Below are positions 5,968-52,908 of a stretch of 64,000 bases of DNA, piece after piece (position 1 is the first letter of the stretch; each line of letters opens with the position of its first letter). The stretch spans positions 496,001 through 560,000 of the forward strand of contig OZ004610.1 of the NCBI GenBank assembly GCA_963924565.1, written 5' to 3'. The stretch is from Ascidiella aspersa (lineage: Eukaryota). The translations under genes and the position numbers were made by a program. The notes beneath the pieces were generated by a model. That model saw only the letters and a list, made by a program, of their open reading frames with translations, did no database searches and had not been told where the DNA came from.

Positions 5968-8900
5968 ATGGATATAAGTAAAAACAACACAAGGTATGTA
6001 AGTTGCATGTGTTTGCTGTCACTTTGGTTAATATCCTATCCCACTTCAAATTAAAAAAGCCTTACAAAAATATAATCTATATTAATGTGATGCTAAAACC
6101 GCAATTTTGTTGACGATCTGTGCCACATTAAACCTGCCATCTTTAAAAATTACTAAATGTGCACATTTTTGTAAAACTTTAGTATTTAAACCGCTGTTTG
6201 TCATTGTTTCTTTCAAAAGTATTGGGTATTTATTTGAGGGGAAGCATTAATATTTTTTAGATATGACAAGTTATGGCTTAATTTTTCGCCACAGTTAATA
6301 TATCTTGGAAATATATTAGTATTTAAGAACAGTAAAGCTACGAGTGTTAACACATTGACAACGTTAAATAATTACATAGCGCATTTAGGATAATAAAGAT
6401 TCCGTAAACATGGGCAACAGTTATAAAAATTGAAAAAAAAATCGCACCAAGTGTTTAGAACTTCGATAGTTAAACTTAGTAAAAAATGTCTTGGAGTGAC
6501 GAAGTCGGTTAATTGGCCAAGTCGGACTCGGGACTCGAGTACAAAACGACTGTAAAAATTCCCAAGTTCGACGTGCACATGCGCAGTAGCACATTCGGTG
6601 AGGCCGCAAACTAAATCGTATATTTTCCAACAATCTATTGAGGATGGGTGAGTTGTATGATAACCCTATAAGTGGAAACGTAATGTTAATTCGGGACCGG
6701 ACTTGAGTCATTATTTAGAGCGGAGTCGAACTTGAGCTATTGAGTTGTGGTTCAGGATTTAGGTTTAAGAACATAACTATATTTCGTTAGGATGGCCGCC
6801 CATGACTCTATGCACGTTCGCTTTATCTGACAAACCAATTCATCTTTTATTCCCCTCTTTTTGTGCCTATTTCTTGGGTACTCTCTTCGATAGAGACCGC
6901 CCTGTTTATCAGCCAGGCCATGACAAAGTCCTCTAGTATTTTCGCTTCCCTTATATTCTGCGACCTTCTGTGATTGAATAAACTAAATAAGCGAACCGTA
7001 TAGAAAGTAGTCGGCGTAACCTTCATATGACCTTCATCCGTCTCACTGCTGATATTCAAGCGAGCGCGAATTCCAAGAAGCCGTCAGTGTTTGTCTCTTA
7101 GCGATATCTGTGGTTAACCCCGACGCGTATTGTGTGAGTCGCGTGATAAACTAACTTTGCCACCACACTTTTGTTTCGAGCATTGACTTAATTGGTTGCT
7201 GTGTTCGAATGTATGCAGTTACGAACGTGTTGTAATATTATGTGCTGTCCAAAACTAAATTGTATTGAATAGGTTATTATTAAAACCTAAAGCTGTAACG
7301 CGCAAGGTGTTTTTGGTTGACCAAGAAAGTTTTGTGAGACTTTGTTTAATCGTACCCTCACTTGTATGTGTTTATTAGCCAACGATAAGGCACTACAAAA
7401 GATGTAGATGAAGGTTTTCGCATGCTTTGCCGCAACAGCCTTGCTCCAAAAACGACCTTAAATCCATACAAGACGAGCCATACTTAAAGCCATACAAGAC
7501 GACCTTAAACACGAATAAAGAGAGATATCATACGGAAACAACAGTAATAGTCAGCAGCGTTTAAATAGGGTTGGTTTAGCGACGATATTTGAAGTTTGAA
7601 AATCAGTAAAACAACTCAAAGGTTGCTTGATCGATTCGTTCCGCACGACCGCACACGCACACTGCATTGTTTTTGCGACAAACCGAAATACGCAGGAAAG
7701 ACGCTTTATTCAGTAGGAACTGCGCTTGAGTGAGACGCCATTAAGTGGGAGGTGCTTTGCAAAGCAGAAGCTCTTATTGTTTGTGGGTAGCTTTGCAAAC
7801 ACAGCACTTATTCAACTGGGGGCTTAGGTTAAGTTGATTCACATTGCGATATTTTTAAAAGTGTAAAACTATGAACGTGTTAATCTTAAGTGATTTATAA
7901 GTAAATTTGCAAACTGGAGATAAAGTTGGGCTTAGAAAGAAAAATATTTTTTACTGTTTACAGGTCTGTATATGTTAATGTTTAATTATGAAGTATCAGT
8001 GTTTTTCTTTGTTTAATGTTATATTTGTTAAAAACAAACTTTAATTTAGTGATACAGTTTAGTGCTTATTTTTAAAAGAAATATATCTATGGAAACTGTA
8101 AAACTAGTTGTGAAGATATTCCATCGTAATTCGCCTTCAGCTTGCAGCCAGAGTGGAAGAATCTCACACTTTTTAAAGAACTCGTCGACAGTCGAGTTGA
8201 ACCTTCCCTCTTCTGACACATTCGACAGCGTGCTACTTGCCACTGTCAAAGCGTGTAACATCCTTCCTCTATACCTGCCTTTGTTTGCACTAAAAGATTG
8301 CCGGAACAACCACTGGGTGAGGCTAAGCGCAAGGGTTGGCTCGTACCAGTTTTCACCGGACAACCAAGAGTCAAACTCCGCTTCCAATAACAACTCTCCT
8401 CCACCACATTTAGAGCTTAGAATCCGTTACACAATCCAGCTTGAATGTCAACTCCATGGCGTGGTTCAACAAGCCAGAAGATACTCATTGACTGAGAATG
8501 GCTTCAAGGATGTGATTAATGGCACTGTGCTTCAATATTTGTTTCTGCAGCGACGGGAGGATTTTCTTCTCGATAAACTCCCAGTTGACAAATCTATAAC
8601 CGATCCTTTAAGTTCAACACTTGGCGTTGCAGTGTTGGACATGTTAAGGTTGGCTTGCGAGTTGGATGTTGATGTCAATGAAATTCGCAACTCAGTCAAC
8701 TATAAAAAGTTGCTGCCTCCTTTAAGCCAAAGCGAAATATGTGAAATGCATTTTTTCAATCGAATGAGAACAACCATCATGTTTGGAAGGTACCTGAGGC
8801 ATTTTAGAACCAGGTGTTCTGGTTATGTGGTCTCATTTTTCCATTCAAAGTATTTGCAGAACCTTGAACTGGTTGTCGGATATAAGAACCAGGAAAGTTA

Positions 8901-11900
8901 CCCACTTCTTTATAATGATGACTTTCCTGATGATTGCAGAAAGATCACAGTTGATTCTGAGTTGGGAATTATAAAGCACACACGTGAGGATCCAGCCGGG
9001 GAAGTTTGGTGCGATTTCCAACAAATCACAGACCTCAGTCTGCAAGTTCGTAATGATGCAAAATCAGAATCGACCATGTACATTGTCAGTATAAGCCAAT
9101 TGGACGGGAAGTGCTTAAGTCTTTTTCTACCTTCAATCCACGAGGCAGAAAACCTAACGTCTTGCATTGATGGATACTACCGCCTACTCGCTGATGCCCA
9201 CCATTATTTGTGCAAGGAAATAGCATCACCCACTCTAGTTGAGCAGCTATCTCTGTTGTGCCATGGTCCAGTCTCTTGTTTATTCGCTGAGCATATTTTA
9301 AAGTCTATTCCGCACCCGAATATAGGTGATTGCTTGTTGCGATGTAGTCTGGATTCATACGACGAATACTTCATCAACACAATACAAAGTGTTCATCCGG
9401 AAATTATAACCAAGAACTACAAGATCGATAAAATCGGTGGACTGCTTGGGATGTACGGAGACGAAGCTTCTCACGTCCACCAAAGCCTTCGTTCTTTGTT
9501 GGAGGGATGTGTAGGTGGATTGCACCAAGGAAGGCCCATACCTTTCAACATTAACCATCTTGTGAGCCCAAAGATTAACCAGAAATGCAACCTCTTAATC
9601 AGGAGATGCTCAGATGCCGATTATCAAATACAGGGGAATGCTCTCGGATCCAGCTCAAGAATTGTGCTTTTAAAGCAGCAGGAATATCAGTTGGTTCAGA
9701 ACTTGGGTGGCGGCCGATTCACAAAGGCATTTCTGTATGCAAAAAAAGACAAGCCGGAATACCAGATTGTTGCAAAGAAAGTTCACGAACTGGAGCAACG
9801 ACATGATTTAGGACAGAAGCAGCATATTGATCAATCTTTTCAAGAATCAATAATGAGCTTTAACTGCTTGAAAACAGACCACATTGTATCTATTTTGGGC
9901 ACAATGCAGAACATGTTGGTCCTAGAATACGTTCCTTTGGGTTCTATCACATCATTTTTAAGCTCGAGGGAGGAGCAGCCAACAACTGAGTGGTTTTTGC
10001 ATGTTTTGTGGCAATTAACTCATGCTTGTACCTACTTAGAGGAAATGGATTGTCCTCATGGAAATATAAACGGCAAAAATGTGCTTTTGTGGCACGATCA
10101 ACCGAAACCAATGATTAAGCTGAGTGATCCTGGTGTTCGTACTTGTAGAAAGACCGAGAGGCAACGAATAATCACCGAACCTGTGTTGGGAGCTCCGTGG
10201 CTTGCATACGAGTTTTGTTCCATCATTCCTTCAGTGTCTCCCTGTGCTACAAAACCCACTGTTAACGGTGATAAGTGGAGTTTTGCTACGACAGTTTGTG
10301 AAATTTGCGACGGTGCTATCTACGGATCCTGGAACGCTTACAGTTTATCTGACGAACTTAAAATCGCTTATAGAAACGGCTCGGTTGTTCCGATACCAGA
10401 AATGCTAAATGCGCTCGGAGTTGGTGAAGTATGCACCTTGATAAGACAATGCTGGAGTACCTTTCCGCTAAAACGTCCGGCATTTAGACATGTTTTACGT
10501 GAGCTTCAAACAGTTTTGTCGAGTGACTACGTACTTCCACCAACGAGGCCAGCGAGGAGAATCAACCAAAGCGTTGAAGTACAAGAAACAAGCAGCCCAC
10601 AACTTAAGATTTACAAATGGGAGCATCTCACAAGAAGATGGCAGCTTGGGGAAGGACACTTTGGCCAAGTTGTCCTTTATCAATACGACCCTGATAAAAA
10701 TGGTCGCAGTGAACCTGTGGCTGTTAAAAGGCTGCGGCAAGATCACTCTCAAAATCTGGACGATATTAAAAAGGAGATTAAGGCCATGAGTCGCATTAAC
10801 GACAAGTATGTTGTGAAATTAAAAGGGATGACGTCGTGTAGAACCGGGATCGTCATGGAATACTTACCGTACCCCGGACTTGCCAAGTATTTGCAGAACA
10901 AGAAGCTTGAAGAGGTTCCAATCGTACAGCTGATCCCCTCGCTCCTTGTAATGTCGAGCCAGATTGCTCAAGGGATGATGGTTTTGCAGGAGCACCGACT
11001 AATACATCGAGACCTTGCCCTTCGCAACATCCTGCTTCACCAGAGAAGCGCAAATTCACCTCCTTTCATTAAAATATCTGACTTTGGCCTCTCACGGGTT
11101 TTGCAAGAGGAGCGTAGTTACTACGCAGGTGAGACATTGAATGTAAAATTTTGTTAAATTTAAGGATGTTGTCCCGAACCGTTTAGACTTGTTTAAGAAA
11201 AACAATTGTTTCTGCACCATTTTTTTTATTGGTTTCACATGCAGAAAATTATTTTTGTGTAAATAGAGCAAAGATAGAATCTTTAGTAATTCTAAATATT
11301 ATTTACAGCTTCGTGTACACCTTGTTGAAAAAACCATTGTAGTAGCAAAACAAATATATAGTACAAATAAAATGTAACTAAGTCATTCGCAGGTAGTTGA
11401 GTTATTAGAGCTATATTGTTAGGTAATTATAAAGAAATAACTACACAATTAAATAGTTTTATAATATAAAGTATGGAAAATAATAAAAATGATTTTCATA
11501 ATAACAAATAAGATAATTTCACCATTTATAACTTTGCATTTTTTTATTAATCAAAGTTCTAATAATCGTCTTTCTTTTAGTCAACTATTGTTGTATACCT
11601 TCTGTGTTTTTAAAAAAAAAGAAATATATAATGTTGTTTTTTAGGAAACCCTGAAAAGTTTCCAGCCCAATGGTACGCTCCTGAGAGCTTACGAGCAGGT
11701 AGGAGTGGCTCATTCTACTTCGAGTCGGATGTTTGGTCGTATGGAGTCACCATCTGGGAGATGTTTTCCTACGGAGCAAATCCCAAGTACGAGGCTCTTC
11801 CCAACATCACGATCGACGACCTACCCAGGTTTGTGAGGTTACTTCATGACGGTGAACGTCTGAAACAACCCACGCACTGCCCCAGCGATGTTTATGCTTT

Positions 11901-32900: not shown

Positions 32901-33984
32901 GCTAGCTTCGCCATCGCTGCACACTTCAACGTATCGCTTAAAACTTGCAATATTTATCGCACTTGCTGATCTTTTATCTCCATATTTGACATTTATATTT
33001 CGCGTTTTATTTGCTTTGACTGGATAACAGAACAGTTTGCAATGTTTACTTGGTTGTCGGCATAGAAAGGTCAGTTTGTAAATAAAATACGTTTCATAAA
33101 AATGCTAAAAACTTTCCACGGAACTATTGTACTTTCCATGAATATTCTTCAATAACAATTTTTTTTGTAAACAGTTTAGATAAAAATCGTTTTTTATAAA
33201 CCGCATTGAACGATAATGTTTAGTGATTAAAATTATTCTAGATGTTAAATAACATTCTAGTGTATTACCACAGTTTTGTGTGCATTCTGTTTAAGTTTCT
33301 TTTTATCGAAAATAATGTGTTGTTTAAATATTTAAATGCGAAAAATCTCTGCCAAAATTAGCAAAACGTAATTCAAGTTTAAAAATTCCTGGTCGAACAG
33401 AATCAAGTTTAATTTTTTTTAACAAAATAAAACATCTTCCCATAGGTGTCGCACTGGCGCCATTTTGTTTAACTTTTCATTAAGTTTTGAAAAAATAACT
33501 TTTTTTAAGTACTATGTCCGGATAAAACATAAAAACTTATAAAATAAGACATCGATGCTTTTGTCTGAGCTCTGATTTTATTCCTGCATTCTGTATCCAA
33601 CTTCAAAACCGTAAGCTATTTTTCTAACATGTGTGTGATGACACCAAACATTTTATTTGACAATTTTAAGGGCGTAATTTTTAAAATGATGTGAGCCGCC
33701 ATTTTTATGCTTAACGCTAAAAATGTAATTGTACTTAAATATTTTTTAGTATTTAAGATCAGATTGTGACGTCATTCTAGTGTTGCTTGTTCAACATTTT
33801 GCTGCAAGTTTATCACCGTTATTTATAATTTTTTTGCAGAGTTTGCAACACGTAATACGAAATATGCAGAAGCACATTTGTACTTGACATTTCCACTATT
33901 AACAAAAACAAACCAAATCTCGCATCCTTAGTTGGTTTGCACGCAAATTTGTAATACAAATAGGTTATTTAACACAGTGAGGAT

Positions 33985-34822
33985 ACCGATGCTACCACTT
34001 GGCATCGGGTATCGGCTCCGATCCGATATTATCGGACGACTACCGATACTAACACTTTGCATCGGGTATCGGCTCCGATCCGATATTATCGGACGACTAC
34101 CGATACTACCACTTGGCATCGGGTATCGGCTCCGATCCGATATTATCGGACGACTACCGATACTAACACTTTGCATCGGGTATCGGCTCCGATCCGATAT
34201 TATCGGACGACTACCGATACTAACACTTTGCATCGGGTATCGGCTCCGATCCGATATTATCGGACGACTACCGATACTAACACTTTGCATCGGGTATCGG
34301 CTCCGATCCGATATTATCGGACGACTACCGATACTAACACTTGGCATCGGGTATCGGCTCCGATCCGATATTATCGGACGACTACCGATACTAACACTTT
34401 GCATCGAGTATCGGCTCCGATCCGATATTATCGGACGACTACCGATACTACCACTTGGCATCGGGTATCGGCTCCGATCCGATATTATCGGACGACTACC
34501 GATACTAACACTTTGCATCGAGTATCGGCTCCGATCCGATATTATCGGACGAGTACCGATACTACCACTTGGCATCGGGTATCGGCTCCGATCCGATATT
34601 ATCGGACGAGTACCGATACTAACACTTGGCATCGGGTATCGGCTCCGATCCCATATTATCGGACGAGTACCGATACTACCACTTGGCATCGGGTATCGGC
34701 TCCGATCCCATATTATCGGACGAGTACCGATAATACCACTTGATATCGGGTATCGGCTCCGATCCGATATTATCGGACGAGTACCGATACTACCACTTGG
34801 TATCGGATATCGGCTCCGATCC
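33985..34822. repeat. 57-bp tandem minisatellite, about 15 copies, internally palindromic
   Basis: Unit CCGATACTA(A/C)CACTT(T/G)GCATCGGGTATCGGCTCCGATCCGATATTATCGGACGA(C/G)TA, seen as 19-aa periodicity in three ORFs. Confidence 0.97.
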
Positions 34823-36488
34823 AAAATTAGCCGATTTATAACTTTCTAAAAGATTATTGCAATGAAACCATTTGAGAAAGTGCGACATTCGCTGCGCTAA
34901 AGCAAAGAAATCTAATTTTGTGAAATGTCACTTTAGCTGATTTAGCAGCTTTTAAGCGATAAAACAGCAATTTTATGTAGAAGATCCACTCAGTCACGAT
35001 TATGTACGTCATTGTAAACAAGGCGGAATACATAAATCGTACTAAAGCAGCAAGAATATCATAAGCTATGGCGACGCCACTCGGGTTGCGACCCACAGGC
35101 TGGAGACCACTGAAATAGAGTATTTACCAGTTTAATTTAAAGTCGTAAAAAAATAATTACACCCACAATAACCACGATAATGTACGAAGTCCGCCTGATG
35201 TTTTGTCCAAATAAATGTGACAATATAAATATTGGGAAAATATGTTTTTAATAGCATAACATTTTACTAATGCCAAAACGTTTGCACTACGTGTCACTAA
35301 ATAGAAATTTAAAATCATGTGATGTGTTTTTAAGCTTCACGCGGTTTTAATCACTGTTGTTTTCCCCAGGTATTGATTCGTCCACATCTTGATTTGTTTT
35401 TGTAAAATGCATCAATATGAATACAGAGCCAATATAATTGACACTTCCTATATACGGAGCATAGCTATACGTTTAAAGACAGGAAGCTTTGATGAAAACG
35501 TACTCAGGATCCTCTATAGTAGCGTTAATCAACGCGGCGCACTGGTGTGCCATGGAAGGCTGCCAGGTGCGCCGCGAGCAAAAGGAAAAAATAATGTATA
35601 GGTCTTATTATATAAAACATATATTTTTGTACTTTCCTATTAAGCTTAGCTCATTGATTCCACAAGCCTTTCAAGTAGAAAGCGCAATAAGACCTACTAA
35701 GCAACAATACTAAATCATATAATTAATCTATAATAGTATAAGTGGGCCTATTAAGACCACCGACATTATACCGCCAAATTCGTAGTAATAATCACGACAG
35801 AATAAGATCTAAAATAGTCCAGATAAGACCTAAACATGTCGAAATAAGTTATTAATCGGAATAAGACTTAAATGACACAATAAAATTTTAATTTATAAAG
35901 GCTGAAGTCCCTTAATAAAATTGCAATCAATTTAAGAGAAATACCGCTACACCTCAAAAAATTCGCCCTCGCTTCGCTCCCAAGGTGCGCCCCTAACTAA
36001 AAAAGGTTAAGAAACGTTGCTCTGTAGGCTCGCGTTATTTCTTTGCGCGCCTTACACACATTTACATACAGACACACAAACATGTAAATGCGGTTCGGAA
36101 GCTAATTAGCTCAATTTGTTTTGTTTCCATCAAATTTTGGTGTTTTTCGACCCTACAAAAATCAGTTTTGGGATTTATACGGGCCATGTGTCGGGTATAA
36201 GAAGCAAAAGCGTTTACAGAGTCTTTAACACAAGAGCGAAAGTAAGTAGAATAATATGTTTATCAAAGCGGTGACAAATTTTCAGTGTTGGCTTCACAAA
36301 GTTACGTAATAACTGGACCTATAAAAGAAGTAACTCTAGGAAACCTGAGGTTATCGTTCGGCGTCGTGCAAAAATGTGCAACTGAAATCCTACTTTAAAT
36401 AGACTCGGGAGATGATGAGATAGCCTGGTGGAAAAGGGAAATAAAAAAGCAATTTTTTACCGGAACCACTGCTTTAATTATATTTTTC

Positions 36489-46079: not shown

Positions 46080-49000
46080 TTAAGTATTTGTAGACTGGGT
46101 TCTGGCATTTTGTGCCGCGTTGGGACGATTCGGCCCCACAGGAATGGGGGGTTGTGGGTGGTTTTGACAGCACTTCAGTTTCTTGACGATCACGCTGTTT
46201 CGGATGCAATAGACGATGAAGATTGCAATTCCCTGCAGCCCGTTGATTGACGTGTGGATGTACGTCAGCACAAGCGACGTCACTGCATTTCCGAGACCTG
46301 TCGCAACAATAAGGCGGCTGCTTATACAGGATGTTGCATTGTCGTTATGTGGGTGGTTTTTCCATAACACTATAAGCAACACTTATCACATATAAGCATG
46401 CAAAATCACTTACAAAAACAACTTAGGCTTTATTATTGCAATGTTTTAATGTGAAAATTACTTAATACAAACATGAAATAACCCTTTATACAAACATGCA
46501 AAATCACTTTGTAAAAAACGTAAAAATCACTTTTTACAATCGTGCAAAAACACTATGTACCTGTGAAGAATCCAAGACCCCAGCTCGATCCGAGAACCAG
46601 CATGACGAAAAAGAAGGAAGAAATGAACTTCTTTGCATTATCCATCTCTTCTCCTTGTCTCCGCTCCTCCCTTCCCCTGAATGGGAGCGCTGCATAAGCG
46701 GCAATGAGAGATGCCAAGAAGTTCACCAGCAGAACAATACCGAGCGGGGCAGTCACCGAGAGAATGTACACCAATGTACCGGGATCCAACCAGCATCTGG
46801 CGTATTTCAGCATTCCCTGTAAAGTGGAACATTATAAGTTTAAAGGCATAAAAATTGAACACCAGTTTATATTAATTCTGTGGTAAAATGTGGTAAATAC
46901 AGCTTCTGTTTTTGTACTCTCTCTTCCATTGTTTTTACCTGTTGATATTGGTGGCATTTTTCGTAGTGGGTGCTGGGCTTTATGTAGTCTCCCGAATACA
47001 GCAGACCGACGGCGAGCGACGAGCCAACTATCAGGGCTGGAACGAACCATCCAAGCGCCAAGAACGTTCTGTTTCTCTTCTCGGGGTCTTGGGTGCGAAA
47101 GCTTGCTGGAAACTTGAAGGCCATTATCATCCGGATTCCATCGAACATGAACCAGTTGCCTAGGAATATAAAGCGTTTTTGTGGATGTTTGATTTATAGG
47201 CTTTTTTTCAGAGAATATTTTTATACTTCATGCACATGACCAAACAGCAATTTAATTAAATCACGTTATTCTGTCACCGTAGATTATTCCGGGATTGGGA
47301 TTTTCACACAAGCATTAATTACCTGTAGCAAGAAGGAAGTAGTGAATGGCGGCCGTTAGAATGAGGCACATGGTGTCGTTGTTTACAGCGGCATCATGAA
47401 CCAGATTGGCCACATGCAACAATGTAAGGGCGATGGCGACGTTAAGCTGGATGAGAGTACGGTCGCTGTTGATCTCGCGTTTGTGAATGTTCAGGAGTAT
47501 GATGGTGGCGACGAGGAACGCGACCGAAATCGATTCGCAAACGTACGAGAAAATCTAGGCAAAGAAATTTTAAGAACATTTAATTAAACCAACCAAATAG
47601 TTATGTTTTTTATTGCCGACTTATCAATATAAGTTTTGAAGTTCACACACAACAACATATAAATGGCACCCTTTTACCTTGACGTCCTGTGTCGAATCGA
47701 CCATCTTTACGGAGAGAAGCACAGCAAACACGGTGTGGTGATCACATTCGCACAAGACCTGGCTCCCGTCCACTCTAGTGCGACAACCAGCGGTGGAGTA
47801 GGCTCCAGATGACTGCTCGATGAAAACACATGTGAGTTGAACCTTGTCCAGCGTGAGACCTGTCGAGGAAGTGTTGGAGGTTTCTCTGGAAACCTTCTCA
47901 CAAACCCTCTTGTCGCTCTCTTTATCTTGAGCGACGTTCCTCGACAGAGAGATGGAACCATTTAGTGTGGAGTTTGCTGTGACGTCGTAGCCCGAGACAC
48001 CGGTGAAAATCATTGGAGAAAGATCCACGAAGTGAGTTGTCGGGTCCTTGAGACTGCTGGAAGCGTTTTGTTGAAACCTGGATGTTGAAGTGTTGTAAAC
48101 ACTCACCTCAAATGCCACCACGACAACATTGGAGCCGTTTTCAGCCGGGAACGTGGAGTTGAAGGAAGTGGCGTTGGTCAACTGGATTAAACCGGTTTCA
48201 GCTTGACCACCGGTTGTATCCAAGGAGTTGATGAGAACCACGATTTTGTCGATGGTTTTGTGAATGGAAATATTGCCAGCCTCGGCCGCCACATTTACGA
48301 GATCGCTTTCCAACGACAGCAACTTGCCCGAACTCACTGAACCGTTGATTAAACCGTCAACCACGTGCTCAATCTTATCCTCAGTCGATGGTAAGCTTTC
48401 TGGAAATTCTGCGAAAAAAATACTTCTATAGAAAACTAACGCCGTTAAAATAGTAGGAATATTAATGTAGCGAAGCATTTTGTCTGTGAAATATAAATTC
48501 CACCCGTGAGTAGGAAAAGTGTTTTTTTTGATAAATGAGCCTATTTTGTAATTAATATGATAAAAATAAGTCTTAAGTTTCATTAAAACGCGGTGACGCA
48601 ACCAAAGCGGTGATATGTTTTTGCGGGGGAGTTGACATGTTGCTGTGAGTTATTGTTGTTGTTTTACCTGCAGCTGCAGAGTTGATGTAACAGGCCGCTT
48701 GTCTAACTTCTGATGGAAAATCATTGTGAAAGTTGGATATATAGACGATGGCGCAAGTGGCTGACTTTGTGGCACCAGCCGGTTCTTCCCGGTCCACTTG
48801 CCACGGCACGTCAGGATTGACCGATGACCCATCTGGCCACTTCAACAAACTCCTGTTGTAAGTCTAATCGCCGCCTTGGTAGGTTAGACCTGTTTAAATA
48901 CAAACAGCGTTGTTTGGTTTTATATATAATCTGTATGGGCTTTTGGTATTCTACCTTTAGTATTTTCTTTTTCTTTTTAGCTTTTATTTAGGTTTTGTCT

Positions 49001-50900
49001 TACTAATTTTATTGTCACTGCGTTCCACTCTAATAATGGCCTACTAACAATTTTCATGGCGTTGTAACTAATTGTTAGTTTGGTATTAATAACATTTTGA
49101 TCCTTTCGAGTTCATTTTCTACGTGGTCAGAAAACACTGAAAAACAATGAAACTCTCTCTGTATTCTAAACGTTCAAAGTGCTACCTACGTATAGGCTTG
49201 ATATACTTTTTATTGATTATAGCTTGGAATATAGAAGGAGACTCACCAATCCATACGTTACCTCCAAAGCACATGATCAAATTCACTTCATCTAATGTGT
49301 CAACCTTTGCCAGTTCAGCTTGTGAACCAAATCCCCTGCAGTTAGCTAGGCCAGCCGAATGGTTCGTGTGTTCATCTGTCTTCCAATAGAACTTCCTGGT
49401 GTCAGCTGGAACACCTGCAATATGAGATCAACATGTGGTAAATAACTTATCTTTCTCTGTAAGCTCCCAAAGTATTGACTTTCTGTCACGCAGAAGAGAA
49501 GTTTATAAGTAAAATAGCTTTTATTATTATCAGTTTCAGTACAGGACGTCATTTTACCTTTAAAATTTATTGAAAAAGTCGCGGTTTACTTTGCATACAT
49601 TTCATCACTAGCATTGCATGTTAATAAAGTGCTTCAATGATGGTAGTTACGGCAATGTATTGAAAGGTTTACTTCGGTTGTTACTCAAGATAACAAAGTA
49701 TTGGAAGGAGCAATCGTTCAGTAATATAAACAAACTAAGGTTTCTTTTATTACGATTATGATGCTTTTGCACACTGTACTAGGTTAATAACAAAAACGTA
49801 TATAGTGTTTCATCGCATGGGTTCTGTGCTATACGCACTTATTAATATAACGCTGCTTGTTTCAACGCTTTGAAATTTAAAATCTGAAACAAAAGCTACA
49901 TTTTGTCCATTGGACTAATGACGTCATTTGGTACTTGAAACGTTAAACAAAATAAACGAAATGTGCGGTTTTCGTGAAATGTTTAAACGATGTTTTATGT
50001 TTAACTTTATGACAACTGTGCGATAAATAGAAGTTAACCAACTCACCTGATTTGTTTAGTGCGTTGTGAAGATCTTCGTTGGAGAAGAGATTGAAGCAAT
50101 CTTGGACAAGCCCACTCTCACTTTCTGAACAAGAATTTGTCGCAGTTATTAGAGTAAGTAAAACCAAACAAACCACTGTTGAACGATAAAAACGCTCTTT
50201 AAAGCAGAAAGTTGATCTATATTTAGTCAAGAAACTGTTTTTAGGCTGTCAATTTTAGCATTTCACAACTATCATAAAAGGGTTTTTTTCTAAATTAACC
50301 CCTGGGTCTTTTTATCTGAGTCAGCCAAGAGTGAAGGGTTGATTTGCCAGATATACTTAACGCATTACATTTCTTGTTTAATTTTTTCATGTTTGGCCGG
50401 ATACACTTTTCTTGGTAAATATATTGTTTGGCGCCTTTGAAGCAAACATAGTTTGAACAACGAATAACTTTTGCAATTGGAGTGCCAAAATCTTTGTAAA
50501 AAATGTGTTGGTCGCGTCTTTTGCCAAAACAACTCTTAAAACTTACGATTGGTTTTGCATGTTTTCTTGTCGCGGAATTCCTTCACAATCGAAGTAAACC
50601 CCGCTTTTTTGACATTACTAAGCACCGCAGTCGAACATCTGATGTATTCATCGCACACCTTTCCACCACATGCATCTGCAAAGACCACATATAAGTTGTA
50701 TATTTAATATAGACTACTTATTGACCACTGTATACACTGTATAAAGCAGCATGTAACTGTAACCAACAAATATAAGTTGTATATTTAGTACCGTATTAAC
50801 AACTTATTAACTACTAAGTTATCTCACCTGCATTAACAGTGTAGCTCCCATAACAAAGAAACAGCGACAAACAAAATGCCAGTTTCCAAACCAGCTGCAT
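46080..50900 (-). CDS. Adhesion GPCR (signal peptide, C-type lectin domain, GAIN/GPS, secretin-like 7TM), 9 exons, one in-frame stop
   Basis: Exons 50900-50828 (signal MQLVWKLAFCLSLFLCYGSYTVNA), 50124-50047, 49414-49247 (...NVWIG), 48889-48668 (KWPDGS...W...EP...CAIV; TAG at 48864-48866), 48408-47678 (CVFIEQSSGAYSTAGC...CECDHHTVFAVLL), 47554-47323, 47159-46939 (LGWFVPAL), 46816-46561 (CWL...LGSSWGLG) and 46297-46080 (INGLQGIAIFIVYC). Phases are all consistent. Confidence 0.85.
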
Positions 50901-51291
50901 TTTTACGAATGCGCCTTATCTCTAAACACCAACTAGTTGCTATTTTTTCATCATAGAAAAAATAAATTTAAAATATAAAAAAATATTCCCTACTACTACA
51001 ATGTATGTACTGATAATACTGAGTTAAATGAATGTATGAAAGACACACACAAACATATGTGTTTAATAACATCTGTGATCTAGCCCCTCGGAAGTTGCTT
51101 TATGACCAACGATTACGGCTTCCGTATCAATAGTACACCGAAAAGCCATCGCAGACTCGCCGAATCTGTCGATCTATGATGCAAGCAGAGCAAGCCAGAA
51201 AAACAACTGGCCTGCAGTGAGGTTCGAACTCACGACCTCCGGTATGTGCAAGTATTGGCGCATGGTTGTTTCTCGACTCGCTCCTCTCTGA

Positions 51292-51366
51292 GCCTGCATA
51301 GCTCAGTTGGTAGAGCGACGGTCCCGGCTTGTCCGGAGGTCGTGAGTTCGAACCTCACTGCAGGCC
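51292..51366 (+). tRNA. tRNA-like gene (SINE head or pseudo-tRNA), non-canonical anticodon arm, copy 1
   Basis: Acceptor stem GCCTGCA/TGCAGGC, D arm GCTC-AGTTGGTA-GAGC (A box), T arm GTGAG-TTCGAAC-CTCAC (B box), and TTTTT a few nt downstream. The anticodon arm is 2 nt too long. Confidence 0.7.
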
Positions 51367-51639
51367 AGTTGTTTTTCTGGCTTGCTCTGCTTGCATCATA
51401 GATCGACAGATTCGGCGAGTCTGCGATGGCTTTTCGGTGTACTATTGATACGGAAGCCGTAATCGTTGGTCATAAAGCAACTTCCGAGGGGCTAGATCAC
51501 AGATGTTATTAAACACATATGTTTGTGTGTGTCTTTCATTGATTGATACGGACTGATGATCCCCCAGTGTGAAGTTGCTTGTACTAACAAAATGTGCAAG
51601 TATTGGCGCATGGTTGTTTCTCGACTCGCTCCTCTCTGA

Positions 51640-51714
51640 GCCTGCATAGCTCAGTTGGTAGAGCGACGGTCCCGGCTTGACCGGAGGTCGTGAGTTCGAA
51701 CCTCACTGCAGGCC
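51640..51714 (+). tRNA. tRNA-like gene, copy 2 (stem CGGT/ACCG closing the 9-nt loop CCCGGCTTG)
   Basis: Identical to copy 1 except for one base in the anticodon stem. Confidence 0.7.
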
Positions 51715-52908
51715 AGTTGTTTTTCTGGCTTGCTCTGCTTGCATCATAGATCGACAGATTCGGCGAGTCTGCGATGGCTTTTCGGTGTAGTATTAAATGA
51801 ATGTAGTTTTATATATAATCGGTAATGCTTTGTTTTATTTACGAAACATTTTTTATATTTAAACCTAATTACAATTCAATTTATTATTTATCTCAGCTGT
51901 ACGACAGGGATTCACATCTGCTTGTGATCTGTACGGAGGATAACCTTATCCTACAAATTAGGCTTAGGCTACAATCCAATAACTGACCTAAATATAAAAT
52001 CATGTTCCGAACGTCTAATGTGCGTCCGCACAGAAACACGGCGCTAATTTATCAAGAATAAATCGACAAATACACCGCAATCCAAACGTTGCGTCACGAC
52101 ATTTCTTGTAAAGGCTTAACCTGATAAAAACAACAGTAATTCGTTCGCTCACTGAAAATGTGTTTTAATATAGAGTGAGATAAATTGAATAGCTGAAACT
52201 AAAATTAATGAAAAACATGACGGCTGCAATTGAAACTTCTCTTGCAATTGTCATTGCAAACCCGAGTCCGACTTCAGATAATAAATCGACTTCGTTGGTG
52301 CCAGAGTCAGGCTCCATTACAGCTTGCAAGGACATCATTTCACTTGTAATAACTTTGTTGCTAGAAATTTGTCTTGCTTCAACTAAGAAATTATTTTTTA
52401 CATTAGAAGAAAATGAATTGTACCCAAGTATCTAAATACCCGTAAAAGCTTATTAGAATAAAATGATTTTGTCAAGCTAACTGCAAAACTAAATCCATGT
52501 GATATTTGTCTTTTTTATTAATTGCAAATTCGCCTCGAATTGATAATTACACATTGACAAGAAAGTTTATTTAAAAAAAAAAACTGTCAAAATTCTACAC
52601 GTTTTGTATTTACTGATTGGTGATTACCAAAAAAACGTTGATATTTGTCAAATCCATAAATGTATTTAGAAAAAAATATAAGTATAGATATATTTCAAAG
52701 TATAAATATGTTTCAAAACAAGTGCGGTTACCAGCGTTAATTAAGACGCGGCGCGAAATTCCATGTTGATTGCGATCAGCTGATCGAGGAAAGCGCCGCT
52801 GACTTTCTGGAAACGCCTTCACAAGGAAACTGGAGAGCTTCAAGTTGGACGTGGCGAGCAAGTTGTTGGTTTGGAGCAACTTTGTACGTTTTGTTTGTAT
52901 GATCTCGT

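Follow-up and report, generated by a model that had tools for sequence, protein, structure and literature searches.

The window, the whole 64-kb stretch of DNA that was analysed, carries at 51024..51805 a composite insertion made of tandem and inverted copies of a 348-bp unit with a tRNA-like gene. The question raised by this locus is what kind of element it represents and how such copies are made.

Anatomy and age of the insertion

The insertion was divided into the following parts.

51024..51036, + strand: left target-site duplication (TSD), 13 bp, AT-rich, equal to 51793..51805; empty allele in public runs X1 and X2
51037..51243, − strand: inverted arm, 207 bp, reverse complement of unit positions 89-295
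51244..51591, + strand: full direct-arm unit, 348 bp
51592..~51792, + strand: partial unit that stops at site A (positions 1-201)
51793..51805, + strand: right TSD, 13 bp, identical to the left TSD; empty allele

Coordinates and sequence comparison agreed on a 207-bp inverted arm, a full unit and a partial unit, all near-identical, as the first-pass annotation had described. Relative to the family majority, the inverted arm had no internal differences, the full unit had one (position 89) and the partial unit had one at its 3' junction (position 199). This last base, 51790, creates a 3-nt terminal repeat of a type seen only at insertion ends. No poly(A) was present, as had been stated, and the short junction microhomology reported earlier amounted to two bases at each target junction, with a blunt inversion joint at 51243/51244. 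The apparent unit start at 51244 is the inversion point of the window copy only, and the unit is circularly permuted across copies. Consequently, the tRNA-like gene that had been called internal to the unit is present, while the word internal depends on the chosen cut point.

Contigs of runs X1 and X2 (one study) joined 51023 to 51793 at flank depth and left out the 769 bases between, with 13 ambiguous bases. Since these contigs lack the insertion, an empty allele exists and the identical flanking repeats, previously proposed as a 13-bp TSD, are a true one. The insertion is recent and still polymorphic; the empty allele with its exact 13-bp duplication, a check suggested at first pass, bears out the young age proposed there. 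The empty allele and the recurrence of the layout at other loci led to the rejection of an assembly artefact. In runs labelled as other organisms or metagenomes, 73-80% of the words of the unit were present. Runs X3 and X20 gave low-depth cover of the unit with the flanks nearly uncovered, which agrees with traces of a high-copy repeat. Of the two, X20 is probably a DNA run, and it contained fragments only. Viral contigs searched with a 38-nt stretch gave 0 matches.

Open, exon-like stretches at 47624-49427 and 52165-52431 of the window (minus strand) were read by eye as an adhesion-GPCR-like gene with a lectin-type domain, and the insertion may be intronic to this gene or upstream of it. The window also holds a Janus-kinase-like gene at 8053-11157, with a single 1034-residue open stretch over FERM, SH2 and kinase domains, and a short tandem repeat array at 33928-34849 that is open in several frames.

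The repeat family and its two end sites

The unit was searched against the host's 309-Mb animal genome, which turned up in marine runs (2666 first-look candidates, 40 scored, 190 matches). Exact patterns matched 362 and 951 times genome-wide, the latter for one 21-mer; these totals count units and arms, not insertions. A second young subfamily (subfamily B) has a 354-bp unit about 86% identical to that of the window's subfamily, and older lineages of the family are also present. Ninety loci were tabulated as a non-random sample comprising the 39 best full-unit matches (window included), 37 first listed matches of one pattern and 14 loci from another pattern. Left out before counting were the segmental duplicates L071, L081 and L108; L284, taken as a duplicate of L283; and 15 of the 30 loci of a later pattern listing, which repeated earlier loci. 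The first-pass suggestion of an undescribed mobile RNA family is in keeping with this genome-wide dispersal. A search of openly available papers returned no description of the 348-nt family, no tRNA-bearing partner of Penelope-like elements (PLEs) lacking a hammerhead, and no counted rule of one site per end.

Ends were scored at two sites 97 nt apart, site A (unit ~200; range 192-208) and site B (unit ~297; range 293-306). The direct arm ended at A in 42 loci and at B in 42, that is, in 84/90, and at neither in the remaining six. An inverted arm was present in 53/90 loci. Both outer ends fell at A or B in 44 of these 53, and in all 44 one end was at A and the other at B (inverted arm at B in 28, at A in 16); there were no A/A or B/B pairs. 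Independent choice at equal odds would produce this outcome about once in 10^13. The other nine inverted loci had one or both ends outside A/B. For subfamily B, the pairing was read by eye in 7/7 inverted loci among 13 distinct loci. The window copy has the common layout as assembled, with its inverted arm (207 nt) at B and its direct arm (549 nt, 1.6 units) at A; the inverted arm 51037..51243, joining the target at site B, would be the second primed strand. Two fixed priming sites, one used per end, are the key feature absent from the first-pass annotation.

The longest junction match had a mode of 13 bp (27/84 loci), and junction matches of at least 9 bp (63 loci) were 77% AT. Among 143 5' stops, 23 lay at site A vs 7 expected (scan P 5e-5), with no enrichment at site B (4 vs 3.7 expected). 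Six inverted B arms measured 100-107 nt, the span from B to A. A symmetric collision model would predict enrichment at B, and its lack weighs against the mechanism set out below. Searches for an RNA 5' end at the tRNA start, unit 1 or unit 240 gave small stop clusters, none convincing; unit 48 held 3/143 stops, with no enrichment over 44-55. Short repeats without a target origin occurred at 10/77 terminal B sites vs 0/147 internal B sites, and at 3/51 terminal A sites vs 0/166 internal A sites. The window difference at 51790 belongs to this class. We infer that the primer realigns after its first 2-3 bases, in a manner that recalls telomerase, a relative of PLE enzymes.

These end statistics bear directly on copying at the DNA level, either by templated repair from a tandem array, as the first-pass annotation had entertained, or by rolling-circle DNA replication from satellite arrays. 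Such copying would suit the arrays, which reach about 12 units, and the junction microhomology, and either DNA duplication or mixed templates would be needed for nine rare variants found in some pieces only (at L057, for example, in three direct units and not in the inverted arm). It is largely refuted by the fixed 3' ends, the strict A/B pairing, the narrow TSD length (mode 13) and the clean empty allele; a conserved RNA-level cloverleaf with compensatory change (see below) would also be unexpected from repair. This explanation is regarded as highly improbable.

An ordinary tRNA-derived SINE moved by a LINE, through L1-type twin priming or L2/CR1-type short-repeat priming with slippage, was likewise judged improbable. 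The family has a tRNA-derived head with A and B boxes, 5' truncation and short-repeat additions at its termini, which are also known from L2/CR1-type LINEs, and twin priming by L1 is documented in the available literature. L1 twin priming uses variable internal sites, whereas here the second primer was at the other fixed site in 44/44 loci. Monomers with fixed ends, given at first pass as the mark of an ordinary SINE, were not what the 90 loci contained: direct arms spanned 0.2-11.9 units with variable 5' ends, there were two equally frequent 3' ends rather than one, poly(A) and repeat tails were absent, and resident PLEs shared the layout.

Two side observations concern other copies of the family. 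A second empty-site case comes from the comparison of L070/L071 with L095, where another repeat contains a family copy that its paralogue lacks, with an overlap of ~10 bases. Older copies at L304, L306, L307, L312, L316-L320, L324 and L325 contain a tandem 136-141-nt mini-unit, consisting of a short leader plus the tRNA module and lacking both end sites, in up to ~eight tandem copies and often 5' of a full-type unit. Its junction motif was seen in 11/20 loci, some of which were picked for short spacing. The mini-unit may represent a promoter head that was multiplied, or else a small circle of its own alongside the main unit.

The tRNA-like module and the predicted RNA fold

Features of the unit at the RNA level were placed as follows.

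51292..51366, + strand: tRNA-like cloverleaf with A-/B-box-like motifs and a non-standard anticodon loop (ARAGORN; Rfam RF00005)
51640..51714, + strand: second tRNA-like cloverleaf, family-majority sequence (ARAGORN; Rfam RF00005)
51364..51381, + strand: predicted small hairpin that overlaps the 3' end of the tRNA; its loop contains the five-T run 51372-51376
51428..51458, + strand: predicted hairpin A, loop ~51441-51446 (unit 198-203), coinciding with end site A (fold and end counts)
51465..51588, + strand: long predicted rod, apical loop ~51534-51540 (unit 291-297), coinciding with site B
51553..51559, + strand: hammerhead-core-like heptamer, predicted base-paired, rejected as a ribozyme

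The Rfam scan proposed at first pass was run, and the two tRNA-like genes matched RF00005 at 51.7 and 54 bits (gathering 29). The cloverleaf at 51292..51366 carries a private change at 51332. The canonical tRNA anticodon loop has U33 and a purine at 37; the young subfamilies have C at 33 and T at 37, unlike a functional tRNA gene. The loop has also changed. Between the two young subfamilies, 0/73 positions of the module differ vs 49/282 elsewhere. Two acceptor-stem pairs are changed on both sides between older and young lineages. Among 69 copies with the older 3' acceptor side, 58 had the matching 5' side and three the mismatching young one (by eye), and wobble intermediates were common; these counts reflect lineages and therefore amount to one compensatory path. 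These sequence patterns indicate that the module is under selection as a shape.

The hairpin at 51364..51381 shows a paired change between subfamilies in the alignment. The five-T run in its loop is a possible Pol III terminator. Conserved as it is just past the tRNA module, it argues against simple Pol III read-through: a Pol III transcript would be expected to end before both priming sites, which counts against the mechanism set out below.

Both end sites coincide with predicted unpaired loops, with a folding z of about -4.4. Covariation between A and B was weak, its score being reached by 91/500 shuffles; pairs changed on both sides numbered 9 vs 5.5 expected (15/500 shuffles). RNAalifold, run on a gappy alignment with fragments, returned almost no structure. 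On the PLE reading set out below, the A-to-B stretch (~97 nt) would be the equivalent of the PLE tail.

A hammerhead ribozyme was considered and rejected. The heptamer occurs only in the window's subfamily, is missing from subfamily B and older copies and is predicted to be paired in the rod, and the plus strand lacks GAAA in either subfamily. Rfam found no ribozyme over 50500-52300, dimer junction included, at E up to 1. Lacking a conserved hammerhead, the element is not a retrozyme by the definition in the available text of bioRxiv 10.64898/2026.07.22.740005, and the retrozyme membership entertained at first pass was dropped after the subfamily comparison and Rfam scan. It works like one, though, and it shares with retrozymes a small non-coding tandem unit that is dispersed with larger TSDs. 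A non-LTR retrozyme of the Sm-alpha type, in which a degenerate but still cleaving hammerhead gives circles, would share the size, the dispersed tandem copies and a tRNA-derived module (available parts of PMC2770079 and PMC6765202). The heptamer and three 5' stops at its would-be cleavage position also point that way, but the stops at 227-240 were marginally enriched (11 vs 5.8 expected, uncorrected P 0.03), and with the distribution and predicted pairing of the heptamer and the Rfam result this origin was considered quite improbable.

Penelope-like elements and the proposed mechanism

GIY-YIG elements gave 133 matches in the same genome. The resident PLEs have reverse transcriptase and GIY-YIG frames and minimal hammerheads. 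Fifteen inverted PLE insertions read by eye had a tail of ~35-100 nt at one end only, and most of them had a 12-15-bp duplication. In one PLE family, with a putatively Neptune-type cysteine-rich linker, 25 tail-selected copies ended ~80 nt past their other end site, and the tail resembled the stretch between A and B, site A being in register. The corresponding feature is given below.

51489..51520, + strand: weak similarity to an autonomous PLE family's tail, suggestive only

The resemblance was clear for subfamily B, whose tail scored 52.5 against this PLE family, in an alignment that runs partly into flank, and was above all 3000 random windows (maximum 46.5). It was marginal for the window's subfamily, which gave p=0.013 against the same family and a best value of p=0.002 against another, both among 28 hammerhead-core variants tried. 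On these tail comparisons, the family is a candidate partner; its two translated copies were both incomplete. L197 was tried as a second PLE family with the tail motif and rejected, as its copies end before the motif.

The element is probably a non-autonomous 348-nt RNA, copied in trans by two-site twin priming with the enzyme of a PLE. This reading rests on the A/B pairing, the AT-rich TSD of mode 13, the variable 5' ends, the lack of poly(A) and the layout of the resident PLEs, and it agrees with the Penelope-type twin priming suggested at first pass. The family shows what is expected of a PLE partner, namely partially tandem copies whose 5' arm is inverted, a tail confined to one end, and AT-rich TSDs as long as those of the resident PLEs.

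The mechanism would proceed in five steps. (1) A multimeric or circular RNA would arise, with the tRNA-like Pol III module as its probable source of transcription or tRNA-processing enzymes as the probable means of its release. (2) A PLE protein carrying reverse transcriptase and GIY-YIG endonuclease, probably as a dimer, would hold loops A and B, one per active site. (3) The enzyme would cut AT-rich DNA with a stagger of ~13 bp. (4) Each of the two A-rich DNA 3' ends would pair over 1-3 nt and prime internally, one end at A and the other at B, with an occasional slip back of 3-4 nt after the first bases. (5) Both cDNAs would extend over variable distances in the direction of the 5' side of the RNA, often halting at loop A, and would then be joined head-to-head. 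At the window copy, the cDNA primed at A would span 549 nt (1.6 units) and that primed at B 207 nt.

The first-pass annotation had proposed a circular or multimeric template. Multimeric or circular copying is supported by the layout; for the circle itself the variant patterns are mixed. Thirteen rare variants, among them a private 2-nt insertion seen in 12/12 pieces of L056, occurred in every covering piece of their locus, and four were found in both orientations. Several direct arms were nearly exactly one or two units long. The nine variants confined to some pieces stand beside these, and later DNA-level expansion could homogenise arrays. As judged from variants and arm lengths, a circular template appears about as probable as a linear multimer. 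A more specific proposal, which we regard as doubtful, is that of a ribozyme-free circular retroposon RNA in which a tRNA mimic replaces the hammerhead as processing signal and a dimeric Penelope enzyme clamps two loops. Host tRNA-processing enzymes would cut the multimers, a host ligase would close the circles, and two-site rolling-circle reverse transcription would run on one circle with telomerase-like realignment at the start.

Comparison with known systems was based on the available portions of the papers cited. PLE insertions combine partially tandem copies with an inverted copy on the 5' side, and a tail of 30-40 bp is confined to one end (PMC8557442, PMC3846280). In vitro, the PLE protein cleaves and extends both strands at ATT, and initiation is internal, at two stem-loop sites bounding the tail, with a predicted dimer (PMC11167929). 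The window element resembles endonuclease-bearing PLEs (Anolis Poseidon, PMC11167929; Adineta Pen2, PMC3846280) in its partial-tandem and inverted layout, one-end tail, TSD of about 8-15 bp, AT-rich targets, two internal loop starts and lack of poly(A). Unlike these, it has no ORF or hammerhead and is a 348-nt unit with a tRNA cloverleaf. Its A-B tail of ~97 nt is longer than their published 30-40 bp, though resident PLEs reach about 100.

With metazoan non-LTR retrozymes, for which PLE mobilisation and a circular template have been proposed, the element shares small non-coding tandem units of similar size, dispersal and larger TSDs (PMC7229834, bioRxiv 10.64898/2026.07.22.740005). In the available accounts, retrozymes are defined by a type I hammerhead per unit and their circles are demonstrated, whereas a circle of the window element is a possibility suggested by DNA patterns; its unit is not a recognisable PLE pseudo-LTR. 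The Schistosoma elements Sm-alpha and Sj-alpha are similarly tRNA-derived, with a Pol III-type promoter in a tandem unit and SINE-like dispersal, but the Sm-alpha hammerhead is active and the window element has none (PMC2770079, PMC6765202). MRC1 and other Chlamys partners of Chlamydomonas are also non-autonomous, multicopy, head-to-tail and PLE-driven, and the PLEs driving them lack canonical hammerheads (PMC8557442). These partners generally resemble the autonomous 3' end, whereas the similarity of the window element is weak, and no tRNA module is mentioned for them in the available text (PMC8557442). The PLE layout, retrozymes as PLE partners, the hammerhead-bearing tRNA-derived Sm-alpha and non-autonomous Chlamys partners are thus already in print.

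The origin of tandem and inverted PLE insertions with a one-sided tail is treated as an open question in the available parts of PMC8557442 and PMC11167929. A single short RNA with hundreds of young copies offers a natural tally, in which both start sites are used per inverted insertion, one per DNA end, cDNA synthesis tends to halt at one of the two, and slippage at the start adds short repeats in the manner of telomerase. Each of these outcomes translates directly into a prediction for the in vitro PLE assay that already exists. The family also suggests that PLE hitchhikers can do without a hammerhead, in which case retrozyme screens keyed to it would miss them. Annotation would mistake this family for hundreds of tRNA genes.

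Further PLE observations were made in the same genome. A young PLE family at L165 (G000:C2 near 30.63 Mb) and L159 has about four tandem 3422-bp units, with a frame beginning inside the tail and a tail motif with 91 exact matches. Several further PLE families have 35-100 nt tails and minimal hammerheads. At L144/L171 and L147, copies of the 348-nt family lie in or adjoin the 3' region of another PLE family.
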